Positions 19,206-42,542 of a stretch of DNA of 42,929 bases are shown here, piece by piece. Source of the stretch: Ignisphaera sp. Its GTDB lineage: Archaea; Thermoproteota; Thermoprotei_A; Sulfolobales; Ignisphaeraceae. The DNA is taken from positions 1 through 42,929 of the forward strand of contig JAWBDT010000017.1 in NCBI GenBank assembly GCA_038821645.1, given 5' to 3'. The notes beneath the pieces were generated by a model. That model was not told the DNA's origin, searched no databases, and saw nothing but the letters and a program-made list of their open reading frames with translations. How positions within the stretch are numbered: position 1 is the first letter of the stretch; each line of letters opens with the position of its first letter. The position numbers and the translations under genes were made by a program.

Positions 19206-19351
19206 GTGGTGCTACACCTTATCACCACTTTAAAGCTAAACAATACTTATAAGAATTACTAGTTTAACTAAGTCAAAGATGTATTATATATGGAGTCATA
19301 AAGAGTTTTCATAAACAAATATACTAGTTTCTATGTCTATTATCTTGTGGG

Positions 19352-24642: not shown

Positions 24643-26301
24643 CTATTCCCTAAATACAGCACCTGTATATGATGATGTAACAAGCTCTGAGTATCTCTTT
24701 AGATAGCCCTTAAACCTTATTTTAGCAGGTTTCCATTTCTTGAATCTTTCATTCAATTCATCTTCATCTACTAATAAATCGACTTTCTTCATCTTCAAAT
24801 CTATTCTTATCCTATCACCATTCTCCACAACAGCTATAGGACCTCCTTCAGCTGCTTCAGGTGATACATGACCTATAGAGATACCTCTAGTAGCTCCAGA
24901 GAATCTTCCATCTGTTATAAGAGCTACATCTCTATCGAGATTCATACCAACGAGAACAGATGTGGCAGTCAGCATTTCTCTCATCCCTGGCCCTCCTTTA
25001 GGTCCTTCATATCTTATCACAACTACATCACCTTTTTCAACTTTCCCATTAAGAATATCCGCTACTGCTTCTTCTTCTGAATTATAGACTTTTGCTACAC
25101 CATCGAAGAAGTAAAGGTTCTCCGGTAGAGCTGAAACTTTTATAACAGCACCAAGGGGTGCTAAAGAACCTTTTAGAATCATTATGCCTCCTCTCGGTAG
25201 TATGGGATTTTCTATAGGTCTAATTACATCTCTACGCATAACCTCTGCACCATCTATTATCTCCCCAATAGTTTTTAGAGCTACAGTTAAACGATCTCTA
25301 TGTATGAGCCCCTTCTTATCAAGTTCTTTCATAACTGCAGCTACACCTCCAGCTTCATGGAGATCCTGTATGTGGTGATGTCCAGCAGGGCTAAGCTTAG
25401 CTAATGTAGGTGTGATTTCACTAACTCTATCGAAATCATCTAGATCTAGGTTAATCTCGCATTCTTTAGCTATAGCCATTAGGTGTAGAACGGTATTTGT
25501 TGATCCACCTAAAGCCATATCGACTGCTATAGCATCTAGAAAAGCCTCTCTAGTCAGTATATCTCTAGGTTTTATGTTTTTCTCAACAAGTTTCACAATA
25601 TTCATACCGGTAATTTTGGCAAGCCTTATTCTAGCAGCATCTACAGCAGGTATCGTTCCATTACCAGGTAGAGATATACCTAGAGCTTCGGTCAATATGT
25701 TTAGTGTATTGGCTGTGAACATTCCTGCACATGATCCTACACCAGGACATGCAGCTTCTTCTATCTGCTTCAGCTCATCTAAAGAAATTTTGCCTATCTT
25801 TACTGCTCCAACGGCTTCGAAGACATCGTGTAGATCAATATCTCTACCTCTATATCTTCCGGCAAGCATAGGTCCACCTGATATGAATATTGATGGTATA
25901 TTCAGTCTAGCTATAGCCATGAGCATACCTGGTATGATTTTATCGCATGATGCTATAAGGACCAAACCATCGAATTGATAGGCTTTAGCCATAACCTCTA
26001 TGCTATCAGCTATAAGCTCTCTCGATGGTAAAGAATACTTCATCCCTTCGTGACCCATAGCTATACCATCACATATACCTATAGTGTTGAACTCTAGAGG
26101 TGTTCCACCAGCAAGTCTTACACCGATTTTCACAGCTTCAGCGATCTGGTTAAGGTGTTTATGTCCAGGTATAACTTCGTTCCACGAGTTTGCTATACCT
26201 ATTAAAGGCTTCTCTATCTCTTCGTCAGTTAGACCTAAAGCTTTGAATAGAGATCTGTGAGGAGCTCTCTCAATACCTTTCTTTACAACATTGCTTCTCA
26301 T
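24643..26301 (-). CDS. ilvD: Dihydroxy-acid dehydratase
   Basis: [49 protein letters not shown]. Confidence 0.97.
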
Positions 26302-26333
26302 GGATAATCACCTAACAATATCTACTGTTACGA

Positions 26334-27911
26334 TTAAGGAGCTAGGAAATTAAAACTCTGTTTACCAAAGATAGGTAGTTGTTGACTCTTTTTCGAGATA
26401 GCTAAAAAATATTCATAGGCGTCAACAAGGCCTCTAATGAATGCTTCTATAACATTTATGGACACGCCTTGAGCAGACCATCTGTAGTTATTGTATCCTA
26501 CTTCTACTGTAACTCTAAAGAGACCACCGTTTAGCGTAGATATAGAGGAATTTATGAGCTTTATACCAGATGTTGAGGGATACACTATTGATGCAGCTTC
26601 AGAAAACGCTCTAGCTACAGCCTTAACTACATCTACATCTATAGCTCTAGCATTAACGTTTTTGATATCAACTACAGCTACACTTAAGCCACTTGAGTCA
26701 AGAAATACGCGCCAGCTATAGGGGGTTAGTGTTTCTTCAACATATCCAAGCTCCTTCAAAGCAATTAGTATAGCTGATGCTGGCGCTATATCGAAACTAT
26801 AACCGAATTTCTCAAGTTCTTTAATCTTTGATAAAGCGCTTCTAACTCTGGAATCCTTCTTATCCACATCTATACCTATCTCCTTAAGGATAGCGACAAT
26901 ATTTGAGCTACCTGATAGATCTGATAGAACGAACCTTCGTGTATTTCCCACAGCCTCTGGATCTATATGTTCATAAGCTCGCGGATTCTTTAGAACAGCA
27001 TCCACATGGACCCCAGCTTTGTGGGCAAAAGCGTAGTCACCTACATATGGTTGATAGGGGTTAGGCTTCATATTAAGTATCTCATAGACTAGTTTGGACA
27101 TTGTTTTCAATTTTTTGATTGATTCAACACCATTTAGTACCCTCATATTCAATTTATAGAATAGTGTTGGTATGATTTGCACAAGATCGGCATTACCCGT
27201 TCTTTCACCAATACCATTTATTGTACCTTGAACATGTCTAGCACCAGCTACTACACCAACAATAGTATTTGCAACAGCACAACCAATATCGTTATGCATA
27301 TGTAGTCCTACAGGTATTTTAACTATGGATACAACTTTACGGGTTATTTCATAGACCTCTAAAGGTGTTGTACCACCATTTGTGTCGCAGAGAACTACAG
27401 TTTGTGCACCAGCTCCTTCAGCAGTCCTAAGTGTCTCTAAACTGTATTCAGGATCTTCTTTGTATCCTTGATAGAAGTGTTCAGCATCGAATATCACCTT
27501 AATTCCATGGCTCTTTAGATAGTTAATGGTATCATATATCATCTCCAGGTTCTCTTCCTTAGAGGCATGCAGAATTTCGTATACGTGCAGAGACCAGCTT
27601 TTCCCAAAAATTACAGCAAAATCTACATCTGCTTTCAATATAGCCTTAACATTTTCATCTTCATAGACCTTAGAATTCTTTTTTCGTGTACTTCCAAAAG
27701 CAGCTATTTTTGCATGTGATAGACTATATCTTTTTATCACATTGAAGAATTCTGCATCTTTTGGATTAGATCCAGGCCATCCCGCTTCTATATAGTCTAC
27801 ACCTAGATCATCAAGAGCTAGCGCAATCTTTATCTTGTCTTCAACTGTTAGAGAGATACCGCTAGCTTGCGAACCGTCTCTAAGTGTTGTATCCAGTATT
27901 TCAACGGATTT
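26334..27911 (-). CDS. cimA: Citramalate synthase (LeuA family) with anomalous 5' end
   Basis: The frame continues upstream of the ORF-track start as KSVEILDTTLRDGSQ...YIEAGWPGSNPKD until an in-frame TAG at 27914-27912. DAEHF, LCDTNGG, HMHND and FAHKAGVH are typical of CimA. Confidence 0.85.
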   Translation of the reverse strand, partial: KSVEILDTTLRDGSQASGISLTVEDKIKIALALDDLGVDYIEAGWPGSNPKDAEFFNVIKRYSLSHAKIAAFGSTRKKNSKVYEDENVKAILKADVDFAVIFGKSWSLHVYEILHASKEENLEMIYDTINYLKSHGIKVIFDAEHFYQGYKEDPEYSLETLRTAEGAGAQTVVLCDTNGGTTPLEVYEITRKVVSIVKIPVGLHMHNDIGCAVANTIVGVVAGARHVQGTINGIGERTGNADLVQIIPTLFYKLNMRVLNGVESIKKLKTMSKLVYEILNMKPNPYQPYVGDYAFAHKAGVHVDAVLKNPRAYEHIDPEAVGNTRRFVLSDLSGSSNIVAILKEIGIDVDKKDSRVRSALSKIKELEKFGYSFDIAPASAILIALKELGYVEETLTPYSWRVFLDSSGLSVAVVDIKNVNARAIDVDVVKAVARAFSEAASIVYPSTSGIKLINSSISTLNGGLFRVTVEVGYNNYRWSAQGVSINVIEAFIRGLVDAYEYFLAISKKSQQLPIFGKQSFNFLAP

Positions 27912-27956
27912 CTAAACCACCAACCACCTACTACACCGAACCCAAAAATATTGCAG

Positions 27957-27970
27957 AAGTTTAAAAACTT
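27957..27970 (-). promoter_or_regulatory. BRE/TATA promoter of cimA-ilvD
   Basis: Minus strand AAAG-TTTTTAAA, about 55 nt upstream of the conserved cimA N-terminus. Confidence 0.55.
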
Positions 27971-28025
27971 TATGTAGGATTATTGAATATAATATTGTAT
28001 AAACAGGTATAAAGGTCACATGCAT

Positions 28026-29365
<1,340 letters not shown>

Positions 29366-29388
<23 letters not shown>

Positions 29389-31087
29389 GTATGATCATCT
29401 CTCTAAGACTTCCTCCAGGAGGTAGTGTAGGTATGGCTAGTTCATCTTCAGGTATAGGTACTCTTATAACAGTAGCTACATTCTCCTTAATTGCAGTTTT
29501 AACAGATGTAGCGATATCTTCATAGCTTTGGACATCGAATCCTAAAGCTCCAAAAGCTTCTGCTAACTTTATATAATCAGTTCTATAGCCTAGCTCTACA
29601 GATATTATTCTGCCGCCAAAGAATAGATCTTGAACTTGACGAACGAGACCTAGATTTCTATTATCGAATACAACAACTATTACAGGAATATTTTCTTCAA
29701 CAGCAACAGGAAGATTGTTTGCTGTCATAAGAAATGAACCGTCACCATCTAGATCAACAACCACATTCTGAGGTCTAGCAAGTTTAGCACCTATTGCTGC
29801 AGGGAATCCAAAACCCATGGTGCCCATGCCTCCAGAAGAGATAAATGTTCTAGGTTTAAGTACATCCCAGAATACTCCAGCCCACATCTGGTGCTGACCT
29901 ACACCCGTTGTCACAATAGTGTCTCGTGGAAGAACATCTCTAATCGTCTTAAGCACTCTCCAAGGCTTCAAGCCTTTACCATTATCTTCATAGTATATTC
30001 TAGTATAGTAGTCTTTAAGCTCCTTGATACGTCTAATCCATTCGGTTCTATCATACTTTTTAGCTACTGTTGTTAGTGCTGATATCAGTTTCTTCAACAC
30101 TATTTTGGCATCACCTACTAAACCTACATCAATTTTTATGTTCTGTCTCTCTATTTCTGTTGGATCTATGTTGATCATAATTATCTTCTTGTTCGAATCT
30201 TTGATATCGTTATAGTTAGTTATCGTTCTATCACTTAATCTAGCACCAACAACAAGAACTACATCAGATTCTAAGAAAGCTTGATTAGCCTCGGCTCGCC
30301 CATAGTATCCCATCATACCTAAGTAGAGTGGATAGTCATGGGGTATAGCAGCTTTACCGAGAAATGTGGATACTATTGGTGCAACAAGAATATCTGATAA
30401 GGTTATGACCTCTTCTGTAGCGTTGCTCCAAACAACTCCTGCTCCAACAAGAATCAATGGTTTTTCAGCATTAATCAATAGCTCTATAGTCTTCTTGATA
30501 GCTATTTGATCTATCTTTAATGGAAATTCTCTATATCCCCTAATACTTCGTGTATCAAAGTTTTTTACACCATTGTCTATGTTTTGAGTCCAAATATCTC
30601 TAGGTACATCGATTACGACAGGACCAGGTCTACCTGTTAAAGATATATAGAAAGCATTTCTAATCCATATAGGTATTTCATCTGCGCTATTTAACCTAAT
30701 TGCAAACTTAGAGATATTCTGTACAACACCTATTATGTCTGCTTCTTGAAAAGCCATTTTACCCATTGATGATAATGGCACTTGACCTGTTATAGCTATT
30801 ATGGGGGAACTATCCCAATAAGCTGTAGCTATACCTGTTACAAGGTTAAGTGCTCCAGGTCCTGAGGTAGCGGTACATACTCCAGGAAAACCTGAAGCTC
30901 TTGCATATCCATCAGCTGCATGAGCAGCACCTTGCTCATGCCTCATTAAGATGTTCCTTATGTATCCATCTTTAACATAGTCGTATAAGATATCATAGAA
31001 CTTCATGTTCGATAGACCTGGTATACCGAATATGACTTTAACACCTTCTCTGATAAGGGATTCTGCCATAAGCTTAGCGCCTATCAT
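29366..31087 (-). CDS. ilvB: Acetolactate synthase large subunit
   Basis: RHEQGAAHAADGYAR, TSGPGALN, GQHQMW, SGGMGTMGFG, TPP-binding GDGSF. Confidence 0.96.
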
Positions 31088-31182
31088 TAGAATCCTCCTC
31101 CAGATTTGACATATAGCTTATTGATACGGTTCTCTACATCAATCTCGCCATCCATTATTGTGTTGTGTTCGCTAACTGACAT
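31087..31182 (-). CDS. 31-aa upstream ORF coupled to ilvB
   Basis: MSVSEHNTIMDGEIDVENRINKLYVKSGGGF. Its start and stop both lie in TAATG overlaps. Confidence 0.4.
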   Translation of the reverse strand: MSVSEHNTIMDGEIDVENRINKLYVKSGGGF

Positions 31183-31223
31183 TAACAGACTTGGAGTTCC
31201 ATCGACCTCACCACACAAACCAT
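31182..31223 (-). CDS. 13-aa Val-rich putative leader peptide
   Basis: MVCVVRSMELQVC. ATG lies about 30 nt from the TATA 5' end (leaderless position) and the stop overlaps the next ATG. Confidence 0.4.
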   Translation of the reverse strand: MVCVVRSMELQVC

Positions 31224-31242
31224 GTTTACCCCTTGTTGTAGC

Positions 31243-31258
31243 GAGTTTTTAAACTTTT
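31243..31258 (-). promoter_or_regulatory. BRE/TATA promoter of the ilvB-ilvH-ilvC unit
   Basis: Minus strand AAAAG-TTTAAAAA-CTC. The 14-mer AAGTTTAAAAACTC is identical to the one in the his promoter. Confidence 0.6.
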
Positions 31259-31387
31259 CTTCTAAAGCATTTACTAACAATTACAATTTAAACATATTTA
31301 TATCTGTTTATATATTGTGGACTGTAGATATTATCTTAACGTGTTAATGAATACTTATATACCTCTAAAAATGATGTGTTGTAGGGG

Positions 31388-32557
31388 ATGTCTATTGCTT
31401 ATCCCCTGGAAATAGGTAGAAAAAACCTAGACAAATATGTTAGATTACTTGATACTACGTTAAGAGACGGAGAACAAATGCCAGGAGTTGATTTAAGTGC
31501 TGAGCAAAAGCTAGAAATAGCATTGTTGTTGGATGAACTAGGTGTAGACTCTATAGAGGCAGGATTCCCCATAACGAGTCAAGGCGAGTTTGAAGCTGTT
31601 AAACTTATAGCTAAGAATGTTAGTCGTGCAGAAGTTGTTGCATTAGCTAGAGCAGTAAAAGCTGATATAGATAGAGCTCTAGATGCTGATGTAGATGCTA
31701 TTCATACCTTTATAGCTACATCAGATTTGCATATGAAATACAAGCTCAAAATGACGCGTGAGCAAGTTTTAGAGAAAGCTGTTCAGGCAGTTGAGTATGC
31801 AAAAGCTCACGGTGTTGTTATTGAATTTAGTGCTGAAGATGCTACAAGATCTGAACCAAGGTTTCTGGTTGAAGTGTTTCAAGCTGTTGTTAATGCTGGT
31901 GCGAGTAGAATAGATATAGCTGATACAGTTGGTGTTGCATATCCAAGCTATATCTCAAGCTTGGTATCATATGTCAAGAGTAATGTTAGAGGTAACTATA
32001 TAGTTAGTGTTCATTGTCATAATGATTTTGGTATGGCTGTAGCAAATAGTATATCAGCTATCGAGGCAGGTGCAGAACAAGTGCATGTAACGATTGTCGG
32101 TGTAGGTGAAAGAGCAGGTAATGCTGCTCTAGAAGAAGTAGCTTCTGCATCAAAATTCCTCCTAGGCTGTAGAGTTGGCATTAATTTCGAGAAGATACGT
32201 AAAGTGGTTGATACAGTAGTGAAGTATTTCGGAATATCTATACCACCCAATAAAGCTATAGTTGGTCGTAATGCATTTGCACATGAATCGGGAATACATG
32301 TTCATGGAGTTCTTAGCCATCCGCTAACCTATGAACCTATAGATCCGGCTATTGTGGGAGCTGAAAGACTTATAGTTATAGGGAAACATAGTGGTAGACA
32401 TGCTGTTGAATATGTATTGAAACAAATGGGTATAGAACCAAGAGAAGAAGTGGTTATGGAGGTCCTAAAGATGGTTAAAGAACTTGGAGACAAGGGTATT
32501 AAAATCGATAAATATGTATTGGACGATGTGATTAGAAAAGTTGTGGGGAGGACATGA
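31388..32557 (+). CDS. leuA: 2-isopropylmalate synthase (short form, no C-terminal regulatory domain)
   Basis: DTTLRDGEQ, IEAGFP, EDATR, HCHND, GERAGN, FAHESGIH. Overlaps leuB by ATGA. Confidence 0.88.
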   Translation: MSIAYPLEIGRKNLDKYVRLLDTTLRDGEQMPGVDLSAEQKLEIALLLDELGVDSIEAGFPITSQGEFEAVKLIAKNVSRAEVVALARAVKADIDRALDADVDAIHTFIATSDLHMKYKLKMTREQVLEKAVQAVEYAKAHGVVIEFSAEDATRSEPRFLVEVFQAVVNAGASRIDIADTVGVAYPSYISSLVSYVKSNVRGNYIVSVHCHNDFGMAVANSISAIEAGAEQVHVTIVGVGERAGNAALEEVASASKFLLGCRVGINFEKIRKVVDTVVKYFGISIPPNKAIVGRNAFAHESGIHVHGVLSHPLTYEPIDPAIVGAERLIVIGKHSGRHAVEYVLKQMGIEPREEVVMEVLKMVKELGDKGIKIDKYVLDDVIRKVVGRT

Positions 32558-33576
32558 AGATCTTCAATATAGCTGTTGTAGAAGGAGACGGTATAGGACC
32601 CGAGATAGTCTCATCAGCTCTTAAAGTACTAGAGAAAGTTGTTAGACTCTATGGACTACAAATTGATGTTACAAAAGTTTATGGCGGAGATACAGCAGTT
32701 AAAATGTTTGGTGAGGCTCTTCCAGAAGATTCGTGGAATATCATAAAGAAAAGTGATGCAATACTTAAGGGTCCTGTAGGTGAAAGTGCAGGAGATGTTG
32801 TAGTGAAAATCAGAAGAGGTCTAGATCTGTATGCTAATATCAGACCAGCTAAAGCTTTGCCAGGTGTTAATTCGCTGAGAAAAGATATAGATTTGGTAAT
32901 AGTTAGAGAAAATACTGAAGATGTGTATGTGAGAGCTGAACATATGGTTACAGATGATGTAGCTATAGCTTTACGTGTAATAAGTAAAAGAGCAAGTGAA
33001 AGAATAGCTAAAATGGCCTTTGATTTAGCATTAAAGAGAAGGAAGAAGGTTACAGTGGTTCATAAAGCTAATGTTCTAACAGTTAGTGATGGTTTATTTA
33101 GATCATGTGTGTATAGAGTAGCTCAGAACTACAGGGATGTGGTAGTAGATGAAATGTATATTGATGCAGCAGTTATGGATATTGTTAGAAGACCTGAAAG
33201 ATTTGATGTAATTGTGACCACAAATCTATTTGGTGATATACTTAGTGATCTAGCAGCTTATGTTTCTGGAAGCATAGGTTTAGCAGCATCAGCAAACATA
33301 GGTGACGAAAAAGCAATGTTTGAGCCTATACATGGGGCAGCATTTGATATCGCTGGCAAAGGTATAGCTAATCCTACAGCAATGATATTTTGTGTCTCGT
33401 GGATGCTTAAATGGTTAGGTGAGAAACATAATATAGATTCATACATTAAGGCATCTGAATCAATAAATAGAGCTATTCTAGAGGTCCTCAAGGAAGGTAC
33501 GAAACTAACGCCAGATCTTGGTGGAAACAGTAAAACAGTTGAGTTTACTGAAGCTGTACTTGAAAAAATCAGCTAG
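32554..33576 (+). CDS. leuB: 3-isopropylmalate dehydrogenase
   Basis: GDGIGPE, LYANIRP, RENTE, HKANV, NLFGDILSDL, FEPIHG. Confidence 0.92.
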   Translation: MKIFNIAVVEGDGIGPEIVSSALKVLEKVVRLYGLQIDVTKVYGGDTAVKMFGEALPEDSWNIIKKSDAILKGPVGESAGDVVVKIRRGLDLYANIRPAKALPGVNSLRKDIDLVIVRENTEDVYVRAEHMVTDDVAIALRVISKRASERIAKMAFDLALKRRKKVTVVHKANVLTVSDGLFRSCVYRVAQNYRDVVVDEMYIDAAVMDIVRRPERFDVIVTTNLFGDILSDLAAYVSGSIGLAASANIGDEKAMFEPIHGAAFDIAGKGIANPTAMIFCVSWMLKWLGEKHNIDSYIKASESINRAILEVLKEGTKLTPDLGGNSKTVEFTEAVLEKIS

Positions 33577-33952
33577 GTTCTGTAACAACATCCGCTATAT
33601 TTCTATAGAAACAAGTCCTATTACCCGTATGACATATAGGTCCTAGAGATCTAACCAGGACTACAATAGCATCTTTATCACAATCAACTTTAATATCTAC
33701 AACAATTTGATAGTTGCCGCTAGTTTCACCTTTAAGCCAGATTTTATTACGTGATATAGACCATAAATGTAGATAACCTGTAGTTAACGTCTTTATAAGA
33801 GCTTCTCTATTCATATGACCAACCATAAGTACATCCTTTGTATCAATATCTTGTACAACAGCTATAACGGTATTTTGTTCATATCTAAATCTCAGTTTAT
33901 TTACAATCTCTTCAGCTCTTTCTCTACTGAATATAACTATCTCTTTATCCAT
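33569..33952 (-). CDS. hisI: Phosphoribosyl-AMP cyclohydrolase
   Basis: SRxxIWLKGETSGN, DCDKD, CHTGNRTCF. Confidence 0.95.
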   Translation of the reverse strand: MDKEIVIFSRERAEEIVNKLRFRYEQNTVIAVVQDIDTKDVLMVGHMNREALIKTLTTGYLHLWSISRNKIWLKGETSGNYQIVVDIKVDCDKDAIVVLVRSLGPICHTGNRTCFYRNIADVVTEPS

Positions 33953-34542
33953 TGAGCAATAGCCTCAAGAAGTTGCTTACCTGTAGAACCGCTTTTTTCT
34001 GGATGGAATTGAGTTCCAAATATATTTCTATAGGCTATAGCTGCTGGAAAAAGCATATCGTAATGACTTAGCATGCATATGGAATCGAGGTGTCTAGGAT
34101 AAACAACATAACTGTGGACGAAATATACATACTTACCATTAAGTTCTGCAAATACTTTGCATTTCTCGTTTCTGTTGAAGAGGTATACTTTATCCCAACC
34201 TATATGGGGGAGTTTTCTACTGGTTATAATCCTTTCTACATATCCCTCCAGGATACCTAACCCTTTTGAGTATCCATATTCTGTACTGTATTCAAATAGT
34301 ATCTGCATACCTAAACATATACCAAGTACTGCAGAAATTTTATTAATCACATCTTTAAGTAAATCACCTTTCTTTTCTATATAAGGTCCAAGAGCCTTAA
34401 ACGAACCTACACCTGGTAGGACTAGAAGATCATAATCGTATTCAAGATCGCTAGATATACGTACATCAAAGCCTACACGTTTTAATGCTGATGATATGCT
34501 GAAAAGATTGCCTACACCATAATTAAGTACTAGAGCCTTCAT
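33937..34542 (-). CDS. hisH: Imidazole glycerol phosphate synthase, glutaminase subunit
   Basis: YGVGNL, LPGVG, GICLGMQ, PHIGW, YFVHSY, QFHPEKS. Confidence 0.96.
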   Translation of the reverse strand: MKALVLNYGVGNLFSISSALKRVGFDVRISSDLEYDYDLLVLPGVGSFKALGPYIEKKGDLLKDVINKISAVLGICLGMQILFEYSTEYGYSKGLGILEGYVERIITSRKLPHIGWDKVYLFNRNEKCKVFAELNGKYVYFVHSYVVYPRHLDSICMLSHYDMLFPAAIAYRNIFGTQFHPEKSGSTGKQLLEAIAQWIKR

Positions 34543-34820
34543 TTACGTCTCCTCAACAACTCTTTAGCAATATCTTCTGGTGTAATGTTCTTGAGCACCA
34601 TCAATACCAAGAGATGATATAGAAGATCAGCTACCTCACTTATGAATCTTTCTCTAGATTCTGTTAGAGCAGCTACTATCACTTCTATAGATTCTTCACC
34701 AAACTTTCTAGCAACATACTCAATACCTTTACTTACTAGCTGAACCGTGTAACTGTTTGTAGGCTTCTTTTCTATTCTGTCAACTATAATACTGTAAAGT
34801 TCAGCTAGAACTAGATCCAA
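34539..34820 (-). CDS. hisE: Phosphoribosyl-ATP pyrophosphatase
   Basis: SYT, KFGEE, EVADLLYH. Confidence 0.95.
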   Translation of the reverse strand: MDLVLAELYSIIVDRIEKKPTNSYTVQLVSKGIEYVARKFGEESIEVIVAALTESRERFISEVADLLYHLLVLMVLKNITPEDIAKELLRRRK

Positions 34821-36015
34821 ATCTTACACCTATGCTCATACCATGTATTTTAAACCCTTCATATTCAGCTAGTTGTAGAACAGCTTGAATAACCTCTCTC
34901 TTTATGGATGAACTATCGAGTATTATTGATAAAGGTTTGAGAAAGTCGTAGACGCTTAATGCACCCCTAGATGTAGCCCATCTATTTGTTGGAAGTATAT
35001 GGTTAGGACCTATATAATCTATTAGTGCTGGAGGTTCTTTTCCCAAAGATATGGCACCCACATTACTTATATAGTTCAAGTATTTTTGTGGTTGAGCTAC
35101 ATGAAGCGATAGATGTTCAGGCGCAATAGTATTGACTATATCTACAGCTTCATCAATACTACTAACTTCAACAATGTAATAGTCATGATCTTTATCTTGC
35201 TCTAGGATTTTACCTACTTCTTGTATAAGCTTTTTTGAATTAGATATCAATACTATAAATGTTCCTTGACCATGTTCAGCTTGCGCCATCATGTCAATTG
35301 AAATCATCTCTGGATCAGCCGATTCATCAGCCACAACAACAAGTTCTGTGGGCCCTTCTACACCATCAATAGCTACAGCATCTTGTACAAGAAATTTTGC
35401 TGCTTGGACATATATGTTTCCAGGACCCACAATTTTGTTAACCTTCTTAACAGATTCAGTTCCATAGGCAAGTGCCGCTATAGCTTGTGCACCACCCACC
35501 CTATACACTTCATCTACCTCTAGCTTTAGAGCTACGTAAGCTACAGCTGGATTGATACAGCCATCAGGCATAGGTGGAGAGGTTACATATATCTTTTTAA
35601 CTTTTGCAACTTTAGCTGGGATTCCAGCCATTAATAATGATGAGGGATACGATTTTCTTCCTCCTGGTACATATATACCTACATTATCAATGCTTCTCCA
35701 AACATATCCTAATCTAATACCTTCAATTTCTATTACAACATCTTTAGGTAGATGGAGCTCATGAATTTTGAATAGAATATCGTAGACCACGTCTATAGAT
35801 TTCTTGAGGCTGGACTCAAGATCTTTACAGCATTTCAATAAGTATTGTCTGTCTATTGCAATAGTATCTATATCCACACCATCGAATTTCTTTGTCAATT
35901 CCTTTAAAGCTCTATCACCATATTTTCTAACGTATTCTATAATATTCTTAACGTTATCTAAAACTTTTTCAAGTTCTAAAGGTCTTACAGTTGGAATACG
36001 ATAATATATAGTCAT
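34801..36015 (-). CDS. hisD: Histidinol dehydrogenase
   Basis: [40 protein letters not shown]. Confidence 0.96.
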
Positions 36016-36767
36016 AATCTGACCTCGATACCTTTAGACTTGAGGTATAGTTTTAGCTCCATTATACTCACAATACCATCATGAAATATACCAGCAGCTA
36101 ATGCGGCATCGGCATAACCTTGTACAAAAACCTCGTAAAAATGCTCCATACTCCCAGCTCCACCACTAGCTATAACTGGTAATCTAACAGCACATGCTAT
36201 ACTTTTAGTTAGCTCTACATCATATCCAAGTCTAGTCCCATCTCTGTCTATACTGGTCAACAGTATTTCGCCTGCTCCTAAGGCTTCAACAGTTTTAGCC
36301 CATTCTACAGCATCTAAGTTTGTGTTGTATGTGCCTGAGTATGTATATACAAGGTATTTATTGCCACTCTTCTTAGCGTCTATAGCTACAACAATACACT
36401 GTGAACCGAATTCTTCAGCACTTCTCGAAATTATTTCTGGATTATTTACTGCAGCCGTATTTATGCTTACTTTATCTGCTCCATATGATAGAACGTCAGC
36501 TATATCATTTAAATCTCTTATACCTCCTCCAACAGTCAAAGGTATTGATAACACACTTGCAGTATCTTTAACAACATTGAGTAAGGTCTTTCTATTCTCT
36601 ATACTTGCAGTTATATCGAGAAACACTATCTCATCTGCACCTTCTTCTTCATATCTAGCAGCAAGCTCTACTGGGTCACCTTTATCTTTTAGGTTCTGGA
36701 ACTTTACACCCTTGACTACCCTCCCATTCTTTACATCTAGACAGGGAATTATTCTCTTAACAGTCAT
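36012..36767 (-). CDS. hisF: Imidazole glycerol phosphate synthase, cyclase subunit
   Basis: [42 protein letters not shown]. Confidence 0.97.
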
Positions 36768-37345
36768 ATTACTCCCTTTGTACTCTTGATACCGCTACCA
36801 ATGATTCGTGTAGCATCGTGTAGAGCTAGACCTAATCCCTTAAACACAGCTTCTATAATATGGTGTGTATTGTGACCTTTAATTTTTAGAACATGAATAG
36901 TTATCTTTGATCTGGTAGCTAATGTATCTATGAAGTGATTAACATTTTCAGTACTCATTCCACCTATAACTACCTTCTCTAGATCTAGATCTATATAACT
37001 ACCACCTCTTCCAGATACATCAACTGCTACAAGAACTAATGCATCATCCATTGGTACAATAACATGCGAATATCTCTTTATACCTGATTTATCTTCTATA
37101 CATTTGGCCAAAGCTTCACCTATAGCTATAGCTGTATCTTCCACAACGTGATGGTCATCGTAAGGCTTCTTGTCAACGGTTTTAATGGTTGCAGAGGAAT
37201 TCATGTGTTTGAATAATGTTTCAAGCATATGGTTTAGAAACGGTATAGGTGTATCAATCCTGATCTCTCCCTCTGAGTCTATATCTATATAGACTTCTGT
37301 AAAAGTTTCTAGTGTATCTCTTGAATATCTGCACTGCCTAGACAT
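36764..37345 (-). CDS. hisB: Imidazoleglycerol-phosphate dehydratase
   Basis: [31 protein letters not shown]. Confidence 0.96.
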
Positions 37346-38036
37346 TTTTTACACCCTTAAGAAAGCCTCTGAAGAGAGCCATACCGACTATAGCGTAATC
37401 AAAACCCATGGAGTTTAGCAACAATAAGTCTTCATATCTCGAGATACCTCCAGCATATTCTTTCAGTCCTTTAACCTTTGGTATAAATCTAGCTATGCTA
37501 TTATCTATTCCACTCATAGTTCCTTCAGTATCTATATAAGTGAACATTACACCTAGTAAAGGGTATTGCGAAGCAATTTCTATTGCTTTCTCAATTTCTA
37601 TTGCTTTCTCGTTCCATCCAGAGACATATACATATCCATCAGATCTATAATCTAGTGCAAGAATGACTTTATCACCACCAACATCGTTAATTATATGATT
37701 AAACTCACTTCTATTTCTAAAGAATAACGAAGATATTACAACAGCTGAAGCACCATATCCAAGAACTCTATAAACTTTAGTTAAACTCCTTATGCCACCC
37801 CCAACCTGAATCCAACTGAATCCTATAGACGATATATCGCTTATTAAATGACTATTATCACCCACCCCTTCTGCTGCATCTAGATCTACTACATGTATTG
37901 CTTCATATCCATTACTATACAGTTCTTCAGCAACCTTAATAGGGTCACCAATAACTATACCAGTACCTCTAACGCCTTTAACACGTTTCACAGCCTTGCC
38001 ATCACTTATATCTATGCTGGGCATAACCTTAATCAA
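37338..38036 (-). CDS. hisA: ProFAR isomerase
   Basis: PSIDIxxGKAVK, HVVDLD, QVGGGIR, EGTMSG, AGGI. Confidence 0.93.
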   Translation of the reverse strand: MIKVMPSIDISDGKAVKRVKGVRGTGIVIGDPIKVAEELYSNGYEAIHVVDLDAAEGVGDNSHLISDISSIGFSWIQVGGGIRSLTKVYRVLGYGASAVVISSLFFRNRSEFNHIINDVGGDKVILALDYRSDGYVYVSGWNEKAIEIEKAIEIASQYPLLGVMFTYIDTEGTMSGIDNSIARFIPKVKGLKEYAGGISRYEDLLLLNSMGFDYAIVGMALFRGFLKGVKNV

Positions 38037-38893
38037 GATATCACCTTTTCGATATCTAGTACAACTATATCTCTAGCTCCTTTAGATATAGCTTTAGTTA
38101 TCACAATAGGTATATCATCTTCATTAACTACTGTTATGACCTCCCAAGCATCAGCCTTACTTAATTTTGTTACAGCTGGAGCCAACATTGCTGGAAGAAC
38201 GCTAAGCACATCACTAAGTCTATCGTTAGGGACATTCATGAAGACCATCTTCTTTCCTTTGGCGTTTATAACTCCCTGGACAAGTGTTACAATAAGCTTT
38301 ATCATCTCAGCGTAACGACTTTTTTGCCAGTTCTTACCAGCAATAAGTGTTGCATATGTATGTAACACAGTATCTATAGGCTCTAGACCATGGATACGAA
38401 GCGTTGTACCACTACTAGCAACATCTATAACTGCATCAGCTGCACCTAGATATGGCATAACTTCTGCAGCTCCACTAACTCTCACTATTTTTGCCTTCAG
38501 ATTCTGTTCCCTAATATACCTAGAAGCAATATTGTAATACTTAGTTGCAATCCTTATACTTCTATCCCTAATCTGAGATACCTCTCGTACATTCCATCCA
38601 CTTGGTACAGCAAACACTATACTTGCTTCACCAAAATCGAGCTTCACCAACTCTTCAACATCTGCTTCAGACTCTACAACGTAGTCGTGACCTGTTATGC
38701 CTAGCTCAGCTCCTCCACTTTCAACAATATATGGTATATCTTCTGTTCTTACTGCTACAAGCTCTACATTACTCCAATTAGTTGGAATGACTAAAGCCCT
38801 CTCATCAAACACTTTAGGCTTTATTCCTATTGCTTGAAGAAGTTTTAGTGATGGTTCTTGAAGTCTACCTTTATTAGGTATCGCTATCTTCAT
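38033..38893 (-). CDS. hisG: ATP phosphoribosyltransferase (long form)
   Basis: IAIPNKGRL, GITGxD, IATKY, GAAE..P, DVASSGTTL and C-terminal regulatory domain. Confidence 0.96.
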   Translation of the reverse strand: MKIAIPNKGRLQEPSLKLLQAIGIKPKVFDERALVIPTNWSNVELVAVRTEDIPYIVESGGAELGITGHDYVVESEADVEELVKLDFGEASIVFAVPSGWNVREVSQIRDRSIRIATKYYNIASRYIREQNLKAKIVRVSGAAEVMPYLGAADAVIDVASSGTTLRIHGLEPIDTVLHTYATLIAGKNWQKSRYAEMIKLIVTLVQGVINAKGKKMVFMNVPNDRLSDVLSVLPAMLAPAVTKLSKADAWEVITVVNEDDIPIVITKAISKGARDIVVLDIEKVIS

Positions 38894-39915
38894 AACTCTC
38901 TACCTATAACATATAATATCTTGCTACATAGCTCTGGTGGCGGTATCGTTAGCCTATATAGATCTTCACCAACTTTCTTAATATATATACCATGTCTCTG
39001 CAAAATACTACTAAGATCTCTTCTATCTCTGATTAGTAGGAAATTCGTTAAAGATCTATAAACCTTCAGATTTAAGTTCTTAAATGTTTCATAGAGGTAG
39101 TTCCGCATCTCCTTTATACTATTCACCACCTTCTCCATATACCATCTATTTTCTAATGCGCTTATACCTGCTACAAGTGATGGAGTAGGTATATCGAAGG
39201 TTGTATGTATTGCTGATATCCTTTCTATAACATTTTTGTCTGCCACGATATAGCCAAGTCTAAAGCCGGCTAGACAGAAAGCTTTACTAAGGCTTCTAAC
39301 AACTATAATGTTTGGATACCGATCTATGTAGGGAACTACAGTATAACCTGCATATTCATGATATGCCTCATCGAACACAACATAACCATTAACATTCTTT
39401 GCTAAGGCTTCAACCACATCCTCTTTAGCATGCACCACAGGACCACCAGTAGGATTATTAGGATCAACTATTACAGCTAGATTTACATCTCTAGACTTCT
39501 CTATTAGAACATCTGTATCTACTCTCCACCAATCGCCATCTTCATAACTGTTAACAGTTACGCTTACTAATCCTCTTGCTTCTGCATATACCTTTATCAT
39601 AGCAAATGTTGGATCTATGTATAGAACCTTGTTACCTTGGTTAACTAAGGTATAGAAAATAGATCTTAAAGCACCATCGCCTCCAACAAATGGATAGACG
39701 TTGTCTTTATCAGTTTTGGTGTATTCAGCTAGAAGTTCTCTTAATCTATCAAAGAGGTTTTTATTTGGGTATAGATTACAGTTCTTTAGATATTTTGTGA
39801 CACTCTCTATCACAAAATCGGGTACATTGTATAAACATTCATTGAGATGCAACCTTATGGCTTCATTTGGAGGCTCTTCATATACATAACGGATTTGTAT
39901 TTGTGCAATAAACAT
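38890..39915 (-). CDS. hisC: Histidinol-phosphate aminotransferase
   Basis: RLHLNE, PNNPTG, DEAY, RSLSKAFCLAGFRLGY. Confidence 0.94.
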   Translation of the reverse strand: MFIAQIQIRYVYEEPPNEAIRLHLNECLYNVPDFVIESVTKYLKNCNLYPNKNLFDRLRELLAEYTKTDKDNVYPFVGGDGALRSIFYTLVNQGNKVLYIDPTFAMIKVYAEARGLVSVTVNSYEDGDWWRVDTDVLIEKSRDVNLAVIVDPNNPTGGPVVHAKEDVVEALAKNVNGYVVFDEAYHEYAGYTVVPYIDRYPNIIVVRSLSKAFCLAGFRLGYIVADKNVIERISAIHTTFDIPTPSLVAGISALENRWYMEKVVNSIKEMRNYLYETFKNLNLKVYRSLTNFLLIRDRRDLSSILQRHGIYIKKVGEDLYRLTIPPPELCSKILYVIGREL

Positions 39916-39938
39916 CCCCTTTCATCCAATCTTGTTTA

Positions 39939-39952
39939 GAGTTTTTAAACTT
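39939..39952 (-). promoter_or_regulatory. TATA promoter of the his operon
   Basis: Minus strand AAG-TTTAAAAA-CTC, about 30 nt upstream of the AGGGGATG start region. Confidence 0.6.
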
Positions 39953-40071
39953 AGTGTATTACATAGTTTATACAAAACTCATAGAACTAATGTGTCTATT
40001 TACATAGCAATCATTCATGAATATGTATAGCTTATTAACAAGTTCACACTACATTACTAGGTAGGTGCTAG

Positions 40072-40365
40072 GTGTTGGTTGTATACATACCGAGGGATGA
40101 GTTAATAGATGTTATAGTTCGTAATGGCATGGTTGAAGAATTCGCTTCTTGGATTAAGAAGAAGCTCGGAGATGATTGTGATCCAATTTCTCTAGAAGAT
40201 GTAGATTATGAATATCTGCTTCATTTCGCTATAGAGAAAAAGCTGATAAATGTTGATGAGCTTCCAGAATATATTAAAGATGCAGAGAATCTACACTATC
40301 CTGATATTGATGACAAAGAACTTGAAATGAAGAGGTTGCCTAGAAAGATCAGACGAAAGACATAG
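40072..40365 (+). CDS. Small hypothetical protein
   Basis: 97 aa, acidic core with basic C-tail, AGGTG SD upstream, convergent with the helicase gene. Confidence 0.65.
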   Translation: MLVVYIPRDELIDVIVRNGMVEEFASWIKKKLGDDCDPISLEDVDYEYLLHFAIEKKLINVDELPEYIKDAENLHYPDIDDKELEMKRLPRKIRRKT

Positions 40366-40367
40366 AT

Positions 40368-42542
40368 CTATTCCTCTTTACTGCTTACATCATTAGTATA
40401 GACATTCTCTACTTCTTCTAAAATCTTTTTACCCCATCCATCACCTAAAAGTTTTATCAGAAGCTCACGCTTTTCGATAATATCCTTAATGTTTCTTATA
40501 CCATTATTAGCAAGAATTCTAGCTCTAACTCTACCTATGTACTTGAGCTTGACTAAATCTAGAACATCCTCTCGGACTCCGTGTCTCACTCTCTCAATTA
40601 GTACTTCAAGCTTATCGCTATGTCTCTTCAATCCCACAGTTTTTGTAATGATGTATGCTGAAAATACAAGCCATTCACCAGTTTCTTTGATAACTCCGAG
40701 ATCACCAAGCTCTATACCGTATCGTTCAACAATAACTCTTTCGGGAACCTCTTCTATCCAATCTCTTAATATCAATCCAATTAAACATCCTCTAAACCAA
40801 TCTACATTAGGATCTTTTGCTCTATCCTCTAAAGATTTTGATGGAACTTCTTCTCTCATTTCAAGATCTGCTACAAGTTCTTCGAACCATTCATATGTCT
40901 GTCTAGCTATATGTATATCACTAAAATCAGGAGTCATACCTATGAGAGAAAGGTAGTATAGAAGAGGTACATCTTCTCTGTCTTTTAGTCCATCTATTAT
41001 TATGAAGCTTGAGACAGGATCTATGTAGAGCCACGATGTTGCCATACCCAAGCTTGTAGGTGTGAATGTTACTTCTGTTCCAGTCTTTCTTGATCTAATC
41101 ATTGCAAGCTCTTCTAGCATAGTTACTGTCTCTCTTAGTTTTTCTTCTATGGTTACTGGATCCATATTTACTGCATTGAACGACATACTAAAAAACTTGA
41201 CAAGATCCCGTAATGTTGGTGTTTCTCCTGACGATATTGAAGCGAGTACGTGTTTTCGTAGAGCATCATCATTCCATAGACTTGAACTTATAGCTTCTGG
41301 TGTACCATCAATATATCTTTTGGCTTCAGATAGAGATGCCACGTCTTTACCTATCACAACTATACCGTATGGATCATATTGAGGTCTTCCAGCACGACCT
41401 GAAAGCTGTTTGTATTCTAATATACTGATCCTCTTCATGTATTTCTCGCTAAAGTATCTAGTGTTTATGATCACCACTCTAGCAGGTAGATTAACGCCCA
41501 TGGCTAGTGTTGGTGTAGCAGCTAAGTATCTCAGTAGTCTTTCTCTAAATGCTTTTTCTATGAATTGTCTAGCGTTAAACGATAGTCCAGCGTGATGATA
41601 GGATGCTCCACAACGTATTAACGGATATAGTTTTTCGTATTCAAAATCGTGGAGCTGATCTTTGAGCTCTTTTGCTAAAACATCTAGTTCTCGTAGTTCG
41701 TAATCTGGTAGGGATTTGCACAATACGGGAGCATATGTATAGGCTAATTCTTCAACTGCTTTTCTAGAATATTTGAACTCTAATACATTAAAACCTTCAC
41801 TAATAGCTTTTTGTAACCAGTAATTGGTTAAATCATCGACAGTTATAGTGTCTAGACCATAAGTTGCTCCTCTAGGTATGATCATGGTCCAGGTTTTTTC
41901 ACCTCTATTCTTATAAGCTATAACCTCGTAAAGCTTTACAGGTCTCCAATCAGATTTAATGAGAATAGCATTAAGCCATTTAGCTACCTCTTCAGGATTG
42001 CCTATAGTTGCTGATAAAGCTACTATCTGTATTCCCAGCATTTTAGCCCTCATGGCTATCATCTCAACTATATGCCCTCTGCTAGAATCCCCAAGCATAT
42101 GCATTTCATCTATGACAACGGTTCTTACCTTATCGAACCATCTAGGTCTTTTCCTCATAATGGAGTCTAGACGTTCATAGGTAGTAACAATTAGGTCAAA
42201 TCTACCTAAGTTCTCTATCTCTTCTTGAGTAACGATGTAATCTCCAACAGATATACCAACCTTTATACCATATCGTTCCCAAAATTTGAATTCACTATAC
42301 TTTTCATAAGCTAGAGCCTTTAGTGGTGTTGTATAGATGCCTTTTCCATTTTTTGTAGCAGCATTAATTAGAGCTATTTCACCAATAAGAGTCTTACCGC
42401 TAGCAGTAGGCGCTACAACGAGCATGTTATTCATATCGAGAAGACCGTTTCTTAAAGCTTCGGCTTGTGGGGGTGTGAAACTCTTTATCCCTTTTTCTCT
42501 CAGTCCGCTGGCTATAGGCTCGGGGATATCCATAAACATCAC
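40368..42542 (-). CDS. hel308: Ski2-like SF2 DNA helicase Hel308/Hjm
   Basis: APTASGKT, DEMH, ALSAT, WRPV, HHAGL, TPTLAMGVNLPA, Q..GRAGRP and C-terminal HhH IGRVRARIL. Confidence 0.92.
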   Translation of the reverse strand: MMFMDIPEPIASGLREKGIKSFTPPQAEALRNGLLDMNNMLVVAPTASGKTLIGEIALINAATKNGKGIYTTPLKALAYEKYSEFKFWERYGIKVGISVGDYIVTQEEIENLGRFDLIVTTYERLDSIMRKRPRWFDKVRTVVIDEMHMLGDSSRGHIVEMIAMRAKMLGIQIVALSATIGNPEEVAKWLNAILIKSDWRPVKLYEVIAYKNRGEKTWTMIIPRGATYGLDTITVDDLTNYWLQKAISEGFNVLEFKYSRKAVEELAYTYAPVLCKSLPDYELRELDVLAKELKDQLHDFEYEKLYPLIRCGASYHHAGLSFNARQFIEKAFRERLLRYLAATPTLAMGVNLPARVVIINTRYFSEKYMKRISILEYKQLSGRAGRPQYDPYGIVVIGKDVASLSEAKRYIDGTPEAISSSLWNDDALRKHVLASISSGETPTLRDLVKFFSMSFNAVNMDPVTIEEKLRETVTMLEELAMIRSRKTGTEVTFTPTSLGMATSWLYIDPVSSFIIIDGLKDREDVPLLYYLSLIGMTPDFSDIHIARQTYEWFEELVADLEMREEVPSKSLEDRAKDPNVDWFRGCLIGLILRDWIEEVPERVIVERYGIELGDLGVIKETGEWLVFSAYIITKTVGLKRHSDKLEVLIERVRHGVREDVLDLVKLKYIGRVRARILANNGIRNIKDIIEKRELLIKLLGDGWGKKILEEVENVYTNDVSSKEE

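Follow-up and report, generated by a model that had tools for sequence, protein, structure and literature searches.

Cognate-codon mini-ORFs at the heads of amino-acid biosynthesis operons in Ignisphaera and other Sulfolobales: candidate ribosomal sensors with frameshifting as a possible effector

In bacterial attenuation the supply of an aminoacyl-tRNA is read by a translating ribosome, and operons such as trp, his, leu, ilv and thr carry at their 5' end a short open reading frame (ORF) with codons for the end product; leader-peptide attenuation of the Corynebacterium ilvBNC operon is reportedly a case of this kind. The stretch of DNA studied here, 42,929 nucleotides (nt) from the hot-spring archaeon Ignisphaera sp. 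(Sulfolobales; contig JAWBDT010000017.1 of assembly GCA_038821645.1; called the window below), holds four transcription units for amino-acid biosynthesis, headed by cimA, ilvB, leuA and hisC. An initial annotation had described a short ORF at the head of each, and all four are present in the sequence; we refer to them as mini-ORFs. They resemble the bacterial leaders in being short ORFs with end-product codons at the 5' end of an amino-acid operon, albeit that their translation is here predicted. Unlike the bacterial leaders, they come without terminator/antiterminator hairpins, usually hold one or two cognate codons instead of a run, and reach out of frame into the enzyme gene where the bacterial leaders precede it, on mRNAs that are archaeal and almost leaderless. 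To our knowledge, no cis-acting ribosomal sensing of a specific amino acid has been described in archaea; the initial annotation likewise knew of no well-characterised archaeal equivalent, and a full-text literature search, which did not cover supplements or all papers, found no description of these elements.

A conserved, weak AUU start of a regulated gene is known from bacterial infC, where it senses IF3. The invariant ATT of hisC and leuA (see below) is alike in this respect, whereas in these genes the AUU overlaps a UUG in the next frame (AUUG) and an amino acid would be sensed. With respect to the grouping of operons, the available part of a report on mycobacteria (bioRxiv 10.1101/834739) describes polycysteine leaderless short ORFs that exert translational control on several operons, i.e. 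the 'Cys ribulon', in which the next ribosome-binding site is hidden in an RNA duplex until a stalled ribosome opens it. In both systems several operons of one metabolic theme are each headed by a leaderless or nearly leaderless short ORF with cognate codons, which in our case is read from sequence alone; in contrast to the Cys ribulon, no duplex is conserved here and the target frame overlaps the sensor. With respect to frameshifting, the relevant sections of a 2016 review (PMC5009743) describe prfB and antizyme (both +1), for which a short zero-frame ORF holds the start, the product comes from the other frame and a slow A-site codon decides. The prfB case shares with cimA an element close upstream that resembles a Shine-Dalgarno (SD) sequence; nevertheless, in prfB and antizyme a stop codon senses RF2 or polyamines, whereas here a sense codon would sense a specific aminoacyl-tRNA, the shift would mostly be -1, and the design would be common to many operons. 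The same sections report that limiting one aminoacyl-tRNA in E. coli lets the peptidyl-tRNA slip (hungry-codon frameshifting), and that upon a ketolide-induced shift in ermC the ribosomes run through the leader and switch on the downstream gene, a run-on that resembles the coupling proposed below for ilvB; within their coverage, no hungry-codon shift that gives functional trans-frame proteins was known, and pheL frameshifting appears incidental (PMC5009743). The available part of a 2021 review on archaeal recoding (PMC8211752) gives a single -1 frameshift, that of fucA1, and lists none of the genes discussed here.

The window is contig C17 of a genome (G000) of 1.57 Mb that is 97.8% complete, and it was compared with related loci from its own genus (g1) and from a second family, the Sulfolobaceae (f13). 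The initial annotation had expected that, if the short ORFs mattered, an out-of-frame start plus cognate codon should be conserved in relatives, and this is what was found for all four units, namely in 44/44 ilvB, 45/45 hisC, 16/16 leuA and 15/15 cimA loci. A whole-genome search yielded five more gene families with the same design, each of which was then checked in relatives. The cognate rule thereby holds in 9/9 gene families (hisC, leuA, ilvB, cimA, thrC, thrB, serA, trpB including a paralogue, and aro/tktN), a count that is partly post hoc: the families beyond the original four come from searches with a pattern that was refined on the way, and the conservation counts within families are not post hoc. 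The mini-ORF starts with ATG, GTG or TTG, usually after an SD-like GGTGA or GGGAT, overlaps the first enzyme start out of frame, and carries the cognate codon within two to six codons of its start. On the basis of this conservation, and of predicted cases that were later found (thrB, thrC, serA, trpB, aro), we consider it quite probable that the mini-ORFs are ribosome-read sensors of their cognate amino acid, which is the general form of what the initial annotation had put forward, with start-site competition, frameshifting or translation-coupled termination as the ways in which such a sensor would act. To the fuller proposal, a regulon of such sensors in which a slip at the hungry codon would give access to the enzyme frame or to a leader frame, we assign a rough probability of 0.5.

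According to this proposal, each mRNA would open with a very short ORF that runs, in another frame, across the start of the first enzyme. With plentiful cognate aminoacyl-tRNA the ribosome would continue, terminate a few codons later and not enter the enzyme frame. With scarce cognate aminoacyl-tRNA it would wait with an empty A site at the hungry codon, the tRNA in the P site of this waiting ribosome would slip (-1; +1 in cimA) and translation would go on in the enzyme frame. In the ilvB variant the mini-ORF would overlap a long leader frame, without other meaning, that extends to the ilvB start, and shifted translation through this leader to the ilvB ribosome-binding site would couple the translation of ilvB and shield the leader. 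The slip would be aided by slip-prone codons (G-GAA, C-CAA, A-UUG) and by an SD-like element at a fixed distance. Translation of the mini-ORFs, a slip caused by starvation and the direction of the regulation are what we infer from the architecture and its conservation. Frameshifting, or a shift of initiator register on AUUG, has as the effector a chance that is close to even and perhaps slightly under it, and a control that is structure-free and regulon-wide in the Sulfolobales, in which the first enzyme or the coupling leader frame would be reached only by hungry-codon frameshifting, is a more tentative idea still.

The design is most compact in hisC and leuA. An invariant ATTGC marks the gene start in 15/15 hisC and 16/16 leuA loci of the genus (leuA including the locus of G038). 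Within it, a TTG start followed by CAY (His) overlaps the hisC start in 15/15 loci of the genus and 30/30 of the Sulfolobaceae, and TTG followed by CTN (Leu), within ATTGCT, overlaps the leuA start in all 16 leuA loci; the His and Leu at codon 2 that the initial annotation had pointed out are therefore borne out. The base that decides between His and Leu is the synonymous third base of an enzyme-frame Ala codon and is always A in hisC and T in leuA: all hisC genes have GCA after the ATT and all leuA genes have GCT, codons with a genome usage of 33% and 54%, respectively. In the genus these +1 ORFs are short (M-H-x-stop in 8 hisC loci, M-L-Q-L... in 10 leuA loci), and the hisC mini-ORF has 17 codons in this genome and 3-5 in most relatives. 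In the Sulfolobaceae, ATTGCACCAACC stands ~9 nt past the predicted 5' end in all 30 hisC loci (29 distinct), and all 12 bases of ATT GCA CCA ACC are invariant in the 29 distinct sequences, whereas each invariant residue of the RLHLNE block is encoded by 2-6 synonymous codons; the +1 ORF reads M-H-Q-P-x-stop in most loci and never exceeds 14 codons. A scan of 185,579 species genomes with the extended hisC motif gave 15 matches. Of these, 10 are from named Sulfolobales (Saccharolobus, Acidianus, Metallosphaera, Stygiolobus, Ca. Aramenus and others) and stand at the head of hisC, and the remaining 5 are bacterial sequences without HisC.

Canonical starts in the enzyme frame were counted by a script that includes starts up to five codons beyond the mini-ORF stop; one locus per hisC set was anchored on a second, intragenic ATTGCA, the true anchors being seen in the alignments. 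By this count such a start is lacking in 15/30 hisC loci of the Sulfolobaceae and in only 2/16 leuA loci. A stop lies directly 5' of the ATT in 5/15 hisC loci of the genus. In leuA, four loci (L003, L004, L005, L016) have ATC or ACC where the other loci have ATG or GTG, and the in-frame ATG of L004 lies ~7 nt past the TATA box and was judged to be upstream of the transcript.

Conservation at the nucleotide level, such as the 12 invariant hisC bases, could in principle also stem from DNA operators for amino-acid-responsive transcription factors, or from other nucleotide signals at the transcription start, with the cognate codons being incidental. The position of the elements, at or just past the predicted transcription starts, would fit this, as would the fact that the 5' ends of leuA (31384-31399, plus strand) and hisC (39919-39904, minus strand) in this genome share 15/16 bases, AGGGGATGTYTATTGC. 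The corresponding pattern GG[GT]G[AT][TG]NNNTATTGC has only 3 matches in the genome; the third, on contig C1, was discarded as a further case, as it heads no recognisable gene. Operators are in our view very unlikely, however: the hisC and leuA motifs differ in a single base, which is the very base that converts His to Leu, in each of nine gene families a short ORF of this kind carries the codon cognate to that family, the stop positions of the mini-ORFs are kept through changing codons, and the missing start codons and the open ilvB leader frame (see below) would be left unexplained.

As a separate observation, seven loci from four genera of the Sulfolobaceae (L144-L150) hold a leuA-like gene with a variant mini-ORF, ATG TCT TTT CTT TGT TGA, in which a Leu codon follows TTT and the frame relation is opposite, i.e. 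the enzyme is read in the +1 frame of the mini-ORF; it has a TTG or GTG start 4 nt 5' of the mini-ORF ATG, with none in L146.

For cimA the enzyme frame is interrupted. It opens as GTG GTY TAG AAA TCC..., with the TAG at codon 3 and without a later canonical start, in 11/15 loci of the genus, and codon 3 is CAA or AAG in the other 4/15. The TAG of this genome is covered by DNA contigs from three other studies, with no listed difference. When read from GTG27740, CimA matches TIGR00977 with 463.8 bits and aligns from profile position 58, and the N-terminal KSVEILDTTLRDG is conserved in relatives. The mini-ORF of 9-15 codons, with a GTG or ATG start and G-G-x-[Glu|Lys]-Ile ([GAA|AAA]-AT[CT]), is present in all 15 loci; in the window its GAA occupies 27912-27910 and its Ile codon ATC 27909-27907, with an SD-like GGTGG 4 nt 5' of the GAA. 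Citramalate synthase feeds isoleucine synthesis, and the sensor codon of cimA is Ile. The initial annotation had read Val at codon 2 followed by Leu and Ile as the signal; the ORF and the Ile stood, and the conserved part proved to be Glu-Ile, not the Val. A +1 slip on GAA-A or AAA-A would reach AAA, the codon just beyond the TAG. The in-frame TAG of cimA, the stops 5' of ATT and the missing canonical starts therefore call for either recoding or a non-standard start.

The ilvB unit shows the variant of the design, with a leader of ~135 nt 5' of the gene. The set comprises 46 loci (15 from the genus plus G038, G036 and 29 more from the Sulfolobaceae) and, after removal of 2 duplicates, 44 distinct leaders. 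In each of them, and thus in both families, a start-bearing mini-ORF holds CTC CAA [GA]TY (Leu-Gln-Val/Ile) and stops within 0-2 codons, with MELQVx as typical peptide in the genus and (V)KKMIGDCTLQV or MIGGYTLQV in the Sulfolobaceae. The Val at codon 2 on which the initial annotation had focused is present here (ATG GTT), but ATG/TTG GTT is confined to L001 and L002, and the conserved sensor is the Leu-Gln-Val/Ile at the 3' end of the same ORF. Of the 16 other genomes of the genus, 14 contain a single copy of the exact 15-nt core, and the two genomes without it, which are 75% and 85% complete, are also without an ilvB match. At up to 2 mismatches, this genome gave 5 core matches elsewhere versus 6 for a reversed control, with only the ilvB copy being meaningful, and outside the genus the matches with 1 mismatch were at control level.

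From this core to the ilvB start, the -1 frame is stop-free over 28-48 codons in 44/44 leaders, and its stop lies between -14 and +22 of the ilvB start. Of the stop triplets in the leaders, 239 are in frame with the mini-ORF, 51 are in the +1 frame (only one of them outside the 16 loci of the genus set) and 4 belong to the -1 frame; over a stricter leader segment the -1 frame is open in 40/44 real leaders, while shuffled leaders are open with a mean probability of 0.092. The encoded peptide varies beyond the overlap, i.e. openness alone is kept. Ribosomes would therefore be expected to travel the -1 frame, with entry only from the mini-ORF. A small protein gene in this frame was rejected, as no canonical start precedes the core in 10/16 genus-set loci (15 g1 plus G038), a TGA lies 10 nt upstream in most leaders of the Sulfolobaceae, and the peptide is variable. 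More generally, the mini-ORFs might encode small functional peptides, or the -1 frame of ilvB a small protein, without any sensing; the conservation of the ORFs together with their SD-like sites and start codons would agree with that. We hold this to be extremely unlikely: the mini-ORF peptides have 3-13 residues and vary freely apart from the cognate residue and its neighbour, and the long peptide of the ilvB leader shows no conservation past the overlap, with its start codon often missing.

Two features of the ilvB leaders of the Sulfolobaceae (L055-L083) may be added. Their +1 and -1 frames are both stop-free up to the ilvB start, whereas in the genus only the -1 frame is open; the +1 frame begins at the GTG inside GGTGA and reads V-x-x-P-S-K-S..F-S-K. 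Most of them also have a T-rich tract (TTTTCC, TTTTTC or similar) 7-10 nt past the mini-ORF stop, which is not seen in the own genus and which in the G+C-rich loci L071 and L078 lies within a hairpin loop; this tract may be an archaeal oligo-U terminator that works together with the mini-ORF.

The features of the four units are collected in Table 1. TATA-like boxes, judged by eye, lie 22-24 nt 5' of the short-ORF region or of the predicted mRNA 5' end in all four units, and the 5' ends of transcription follow from the distance to these boxes.

Table 1. Elements at the heads of the four biosynthetic units of the window
Feature	Position	Strand	Remarks
TATA-like box TTTTTAAA of the cimA unit	27960..27967	-	predicted 5' end ~27937-27935, inferred; similar box in 15 related loci
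cimA mini-ORF GTG GTT GGT GGT TTA GAA ATC CGT TGA (M-V-G-G-L-E-I-R-stop)	27901..27927	-	
In-frame TAG, codon 3 of the cimA enzyme frame (GTG GTT TAG AAA TCC...)	27912..27914	-	
Citramalate synthase (cimA) frame 3' of the TAG	26334..27911	-	+1 of the mini-ORF
TATA box TTTAAAAA of the ilvB-ilvN-ilvC unit	31246..31253	-	equal distance in related leaders
ilvB leader mini-ORF ATG GTT ..., MVCVVRSMELQVC-stop	31182..31223	-	start 22 nt past the TATA box
Conserved ilvB core GATGGAACTCCAAGT	31203-31189	-	SD, ATG, GAA, CTC (Leu), CAA, GTC (Val)
Open frame, -1 of the ilvB mini-ORF	31087..31218	-	from the core to the TAA overlapping the ilvB ATG (TAATG)
ilvB, acetolactate synthase large subunit	29366..31087	-	NF005039, 997 bits
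TATA-like box TTATATAC of the leuA-leuB unit	31355..31362	+	predicted 5' end GGGG 31384-31387, by distance
leuA mini-ORF TTG CTT ATC CCC TGG AAA TAG	31395..31415	+	within invariant ATTGCT 31394-31399; enzyme frame -1
leuA, 2-isopropylmalate synthase	31388..32557	+	TIGR02090, 512 bits; own ATG two codons 5' of ATT in this genome
TATA box TTTAAAAA of the hisCGABFDEHI unit	39942..39949	-	predicted 5' end GGG 39919-39917, by distance
hisC mini-ORF TTG CAC ... TAA	39855..39908	-	within invariant ATTGCA 39909-39904; enzyme frame -1
hisC, histidinol-phosphate aminotransferase, first his gene (operon 33569-39915)	38890..39915	-	TIGR01141

Beyond the window, thrC, thrB and serA were checked in 5 of the 16 other genomes of the genus, and thrC and thrB also in 5 of 41 genomes of the Sulfolobaceae. 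The thrC mini-ORF ends as ...TTG GAA ACA TA[AG] (Glu-Thr-stop) in 6/6 loci of the genus, and TTG GAA ACA is present in 5/5 of the Sulfolobaceae, the family of the hisC element, in which the ilvB and thrC elements thus also occur. A thrB mini-ORF, ATG [CGC|CTC] CAA ACA ... TAG, was found in 3/4 orthologues, and T TTG TCG (Ser) in 6/6 serA loci. In serA the enzyme frame keeps the rarest Val codon, GTC (7%), in 6/6 loci, and it is this codon that creates the TCG (Ser) of the mini-ORF; together with the Ala codon of hisC and leuA and the 12 bases of hisC, it points to selection on the mini-ORF frame at synonymous sites of the enzyme frame. The first gene of the trp operon, trpB, has ATG AGC CAA TGG TAA (M-S-Q-W-stop) in 9/9 loci and its paralogue trpB2 has M-x-Q-W-x-stop in 11/11. 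The aro operon, with tktN (transketolase N subunit) as its first gene, has a mini-ORF ATG GAA TT[TC] (G GAA TTY; Met-Glu-Phe...) in 14/14 loci, with a Trp-stop ending in 11/14. A mini-ORF on prephenate dehydratase, which has Met and not Phe after GAA, was counted as background.

Two other genes of this genome deserve mention in their own right. The phenylalanyl-tRNA synthetase alpha gene (contig C14, ~18080-19618, minus strand, outside the window; NF003210, 520 bits) has the 5' end GGGGATGTATAATTGTTTTGA, with a +1-frame TTG TTT TGA (M-F-stop) over the start, and a TTG of the enzyme frame lies five codons upstream; the short ORF may be a Phe-sensing mini-ORF on a synthetase gene. Directly 5' of thrC lies a second gene of the isocitrate/isopropylmalate dehydrogenase family (C3:19195-20202, plus strand), whose mini-ORF stops right after GAA and has no sensor codon.

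The arrangement of frames, slip codons and SD-like elements is what could link the sensors to frameshifting. Relative to the mini-ORF, the enzyme is read in the -1 frame in 7 families, all added operons included, and in the +1 frame in cimA. Conserved directly 5' of the cognate codon are G-GAA, C-CAA, U-UUG, A-UUG (as initiator) and GAA-A/AAA-A, for which one-base re-pairing, judged by hand, would give 2-3 of 3 positions. For SD sequences that stimulate frameshifting the rule is a spacing of ~3 nt for +1 and ~10 nt for -1 shifts, with E. coli prfB (+1) and dnaX (-1) as examples. Matching these spacings, the SD-like core lies 4 nt 5' of the +1 site in 15/15 cimA loci and 8-11 nt 5' of the -1 slip codons, the latter spacing being partly a consequence of the SD serving the mini-ORF start: it is 10 nt in 24/26 ilvB and 5/5 thrC loci of the Sulfolobaceae, 7/8 trpB and 9/11 trpB2 loci, 8 nt in 6/6 thrC loci of the genus and 11 nt in 3/3 thrB loci. 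Rows for tktN, hisC, leuA and serA were contaminated by extra pattern matches and were excluded from this measurement. As to the sensor codons themselves, CTC (10%), GTC (7%), ATC (13%) and TCG (7%) are rare within their codon families, and ACA (54%) is not. No canonical enzyme-frame start was found by the scripted count in 5/6 serA, 3/6 thrC and 2/3 thrB loci.

A number of observations weigh against the proposed frameshifting or against its generality. The family count is in part post hoc, as said above. The slip sites all depart from the classical X XXY YYZ heptamer, and C-CAA re-pairs at only 2 of 3 positions, with a mismatch in the middle. In hisC of the Sulfolobaceae the codon after CAA is Pro, not His, and hisC must therefore use the A-UUG site. 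An embedded or nearby canonical enzyme start is present in trpB (CCA ATG GTA), trpB2, tktN, thrC of the Sulfolobaceae, and hisC and leuA of this genome, and frameshifting is therefore not required there. Two other genes of this genome, TgtA (tRNA-guanine transglycosylase, C5:37245-38825, plus strand) and an NTPase (NF010248, C11:26774-27322, plus strand), have no canonical start near the N-terminus, and an ATA or ATT preceded by a good SD is the likely start of each; starts of this non-canonical kind may be frequent in this lineage, so that initiation at AUU or AUA could account for hisC, leuA and thrB with no need for slippage. The TAG of cimA could be read through instead of bypassed. A cognate mini-ORF was looked for on argG and none was seen, and thrB of G010 and of three Sulfolobaceae genomes has an ordinary ATG and no mini-ORF. 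Within this genome, a crude scan for long start-less ORFs overlapped by a short ORF gave no excess (58 for -1 versus 63 for the +1 control), the scan being noisy, and a scan for the slip-codon architecture gave 47 matches, of which 39 were annotated; these 39 fall on unrelated genes that have starts of their own and in which codon and function show no connection, and they were taken as background.

Some of these observations could be accommodated by cognate sensors that act without frameshifting, the enzymes using their own starts, either embedded canonical ones or a weak AUU or AUA. The stalled ribosome would then shield the 5' end against 5'-to-3' decay, prevent premature termination that depends on a factor (polarity), or alter termination-reinitiation where stop and start overlap (at AUAG, AUAA, AUGGUGA). 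The embedded starts of trpB, trpB2, tktN and the Sulfolobaceae thrC speak for it, as do the invariant ATT of hisC and leuA, the overlap of an AUA with the stop of the mini-ORF in thrB, in thrC and at several hisC loci, the other genes of this genome without canonical starts, and the T-rich tract past the ilvB mini-ORF of the Sulfolobaceae, if this is an archaeal terminator. Nevertheless, a ribosome stalled on the sensor would cover an embedded start, and starvation would then lower the first enzyme, which is the wrong direction; furthermore, the stop-free -1 leader frame of ilvB, the TAG of cimA and the fixed frame relation are all left unexplained. We regard sensing without frameshifting as unlikely, be it a serious contender.

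The genome scans also bear on the possibility of chance combined with ordinary coding constraint at the N-terminus. Short out-of-frame ORFs are common, the 47 motif matches fall mostly on unrelated genes, and there is no genome-wide excess. The background matches, however, show no relation between codon and function, whereas in the families described here the cognate codon is conserved across two families of organisms at synonymous sites of the enzyme frame; chance is therefore already contradicted by the conservation counts, and we give it a negligible probability.

With regard to RNA structure, the initial annotation had seen no attenuator hairpins of the bacterial type, and the comparison of relatives agrees with this. 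RNAalifold gave -1.6 kcal/mol and 0 covarying pairs for the ilvB leaders of the genus set (14/15 distinct), and -3.0 kcal/mol and 1 covarying pair for those of the Sulfolobaceae (18/29), i.e. no conserved structure in either; neither terminator/antiterminator hairpins nor a duplex that hides the ribosome-binding site is conserved in the ilvB leaders examined. In hisC, leuA and cimA the overlap of ORF and gene leaves no space for hairpins. An Rfam scan of 26000-41000 at E<=1 returned only two sub-threshold intragenic matches, with E values of 0.13 and 0.76.

The window has a G+C content of ~36%, and its four units are cimA (26334 to ~27911, minus strand), ilvB-ilvN?-ilvC (31087-28026, minus strand), leuA-leuB (31388-33576, plus strand) and hisC-G-A-B-F-D-E-H-I (39915-33569, minus strand). 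HisC matches its profile with E 2e-74 and 250 bits, below the 277-bit cut-off, and is followed downstream by hisG, A, B, F, D, E, H and I. A 126-residue ORF (29008-29388, minus strand) between ilvB and ilvC lies at the position expected for ilvN (small subunit) and has no NCBIfam match at E<=1e-5; a 97-residue ORF (40072-40365, plus strand) between hisC and the Hel308 helicase gene is likewise without family match.

A sensor regulon based on hungry-codon frameshifting looks like something not yet described in archaea. The presence of the hisC element in named Sulfolobaceae (Saccharolobus, Acidianus, Metallosphaera, Stygiolobus) would make testing practical, and genetic systems exist for close relatives of these. 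If the proposal is true, it makes the archaeal counterpart of attenuation a directly testable question, the annotated start codons of hisC, leuA, cimA, thrB, thrC and serA would be corrected in many genomes, and there would be enzymes whose first residues come from another reading frame. It would also constitute a new class of regulatory recoding. A structure-free switch would suit near-leaderless mRNAs at high temperature, and the proposal, if true, would thereby show how hyperthermophiles with leaderless mRNAs and unstable RNA structures tune their amino-acid synthesis.

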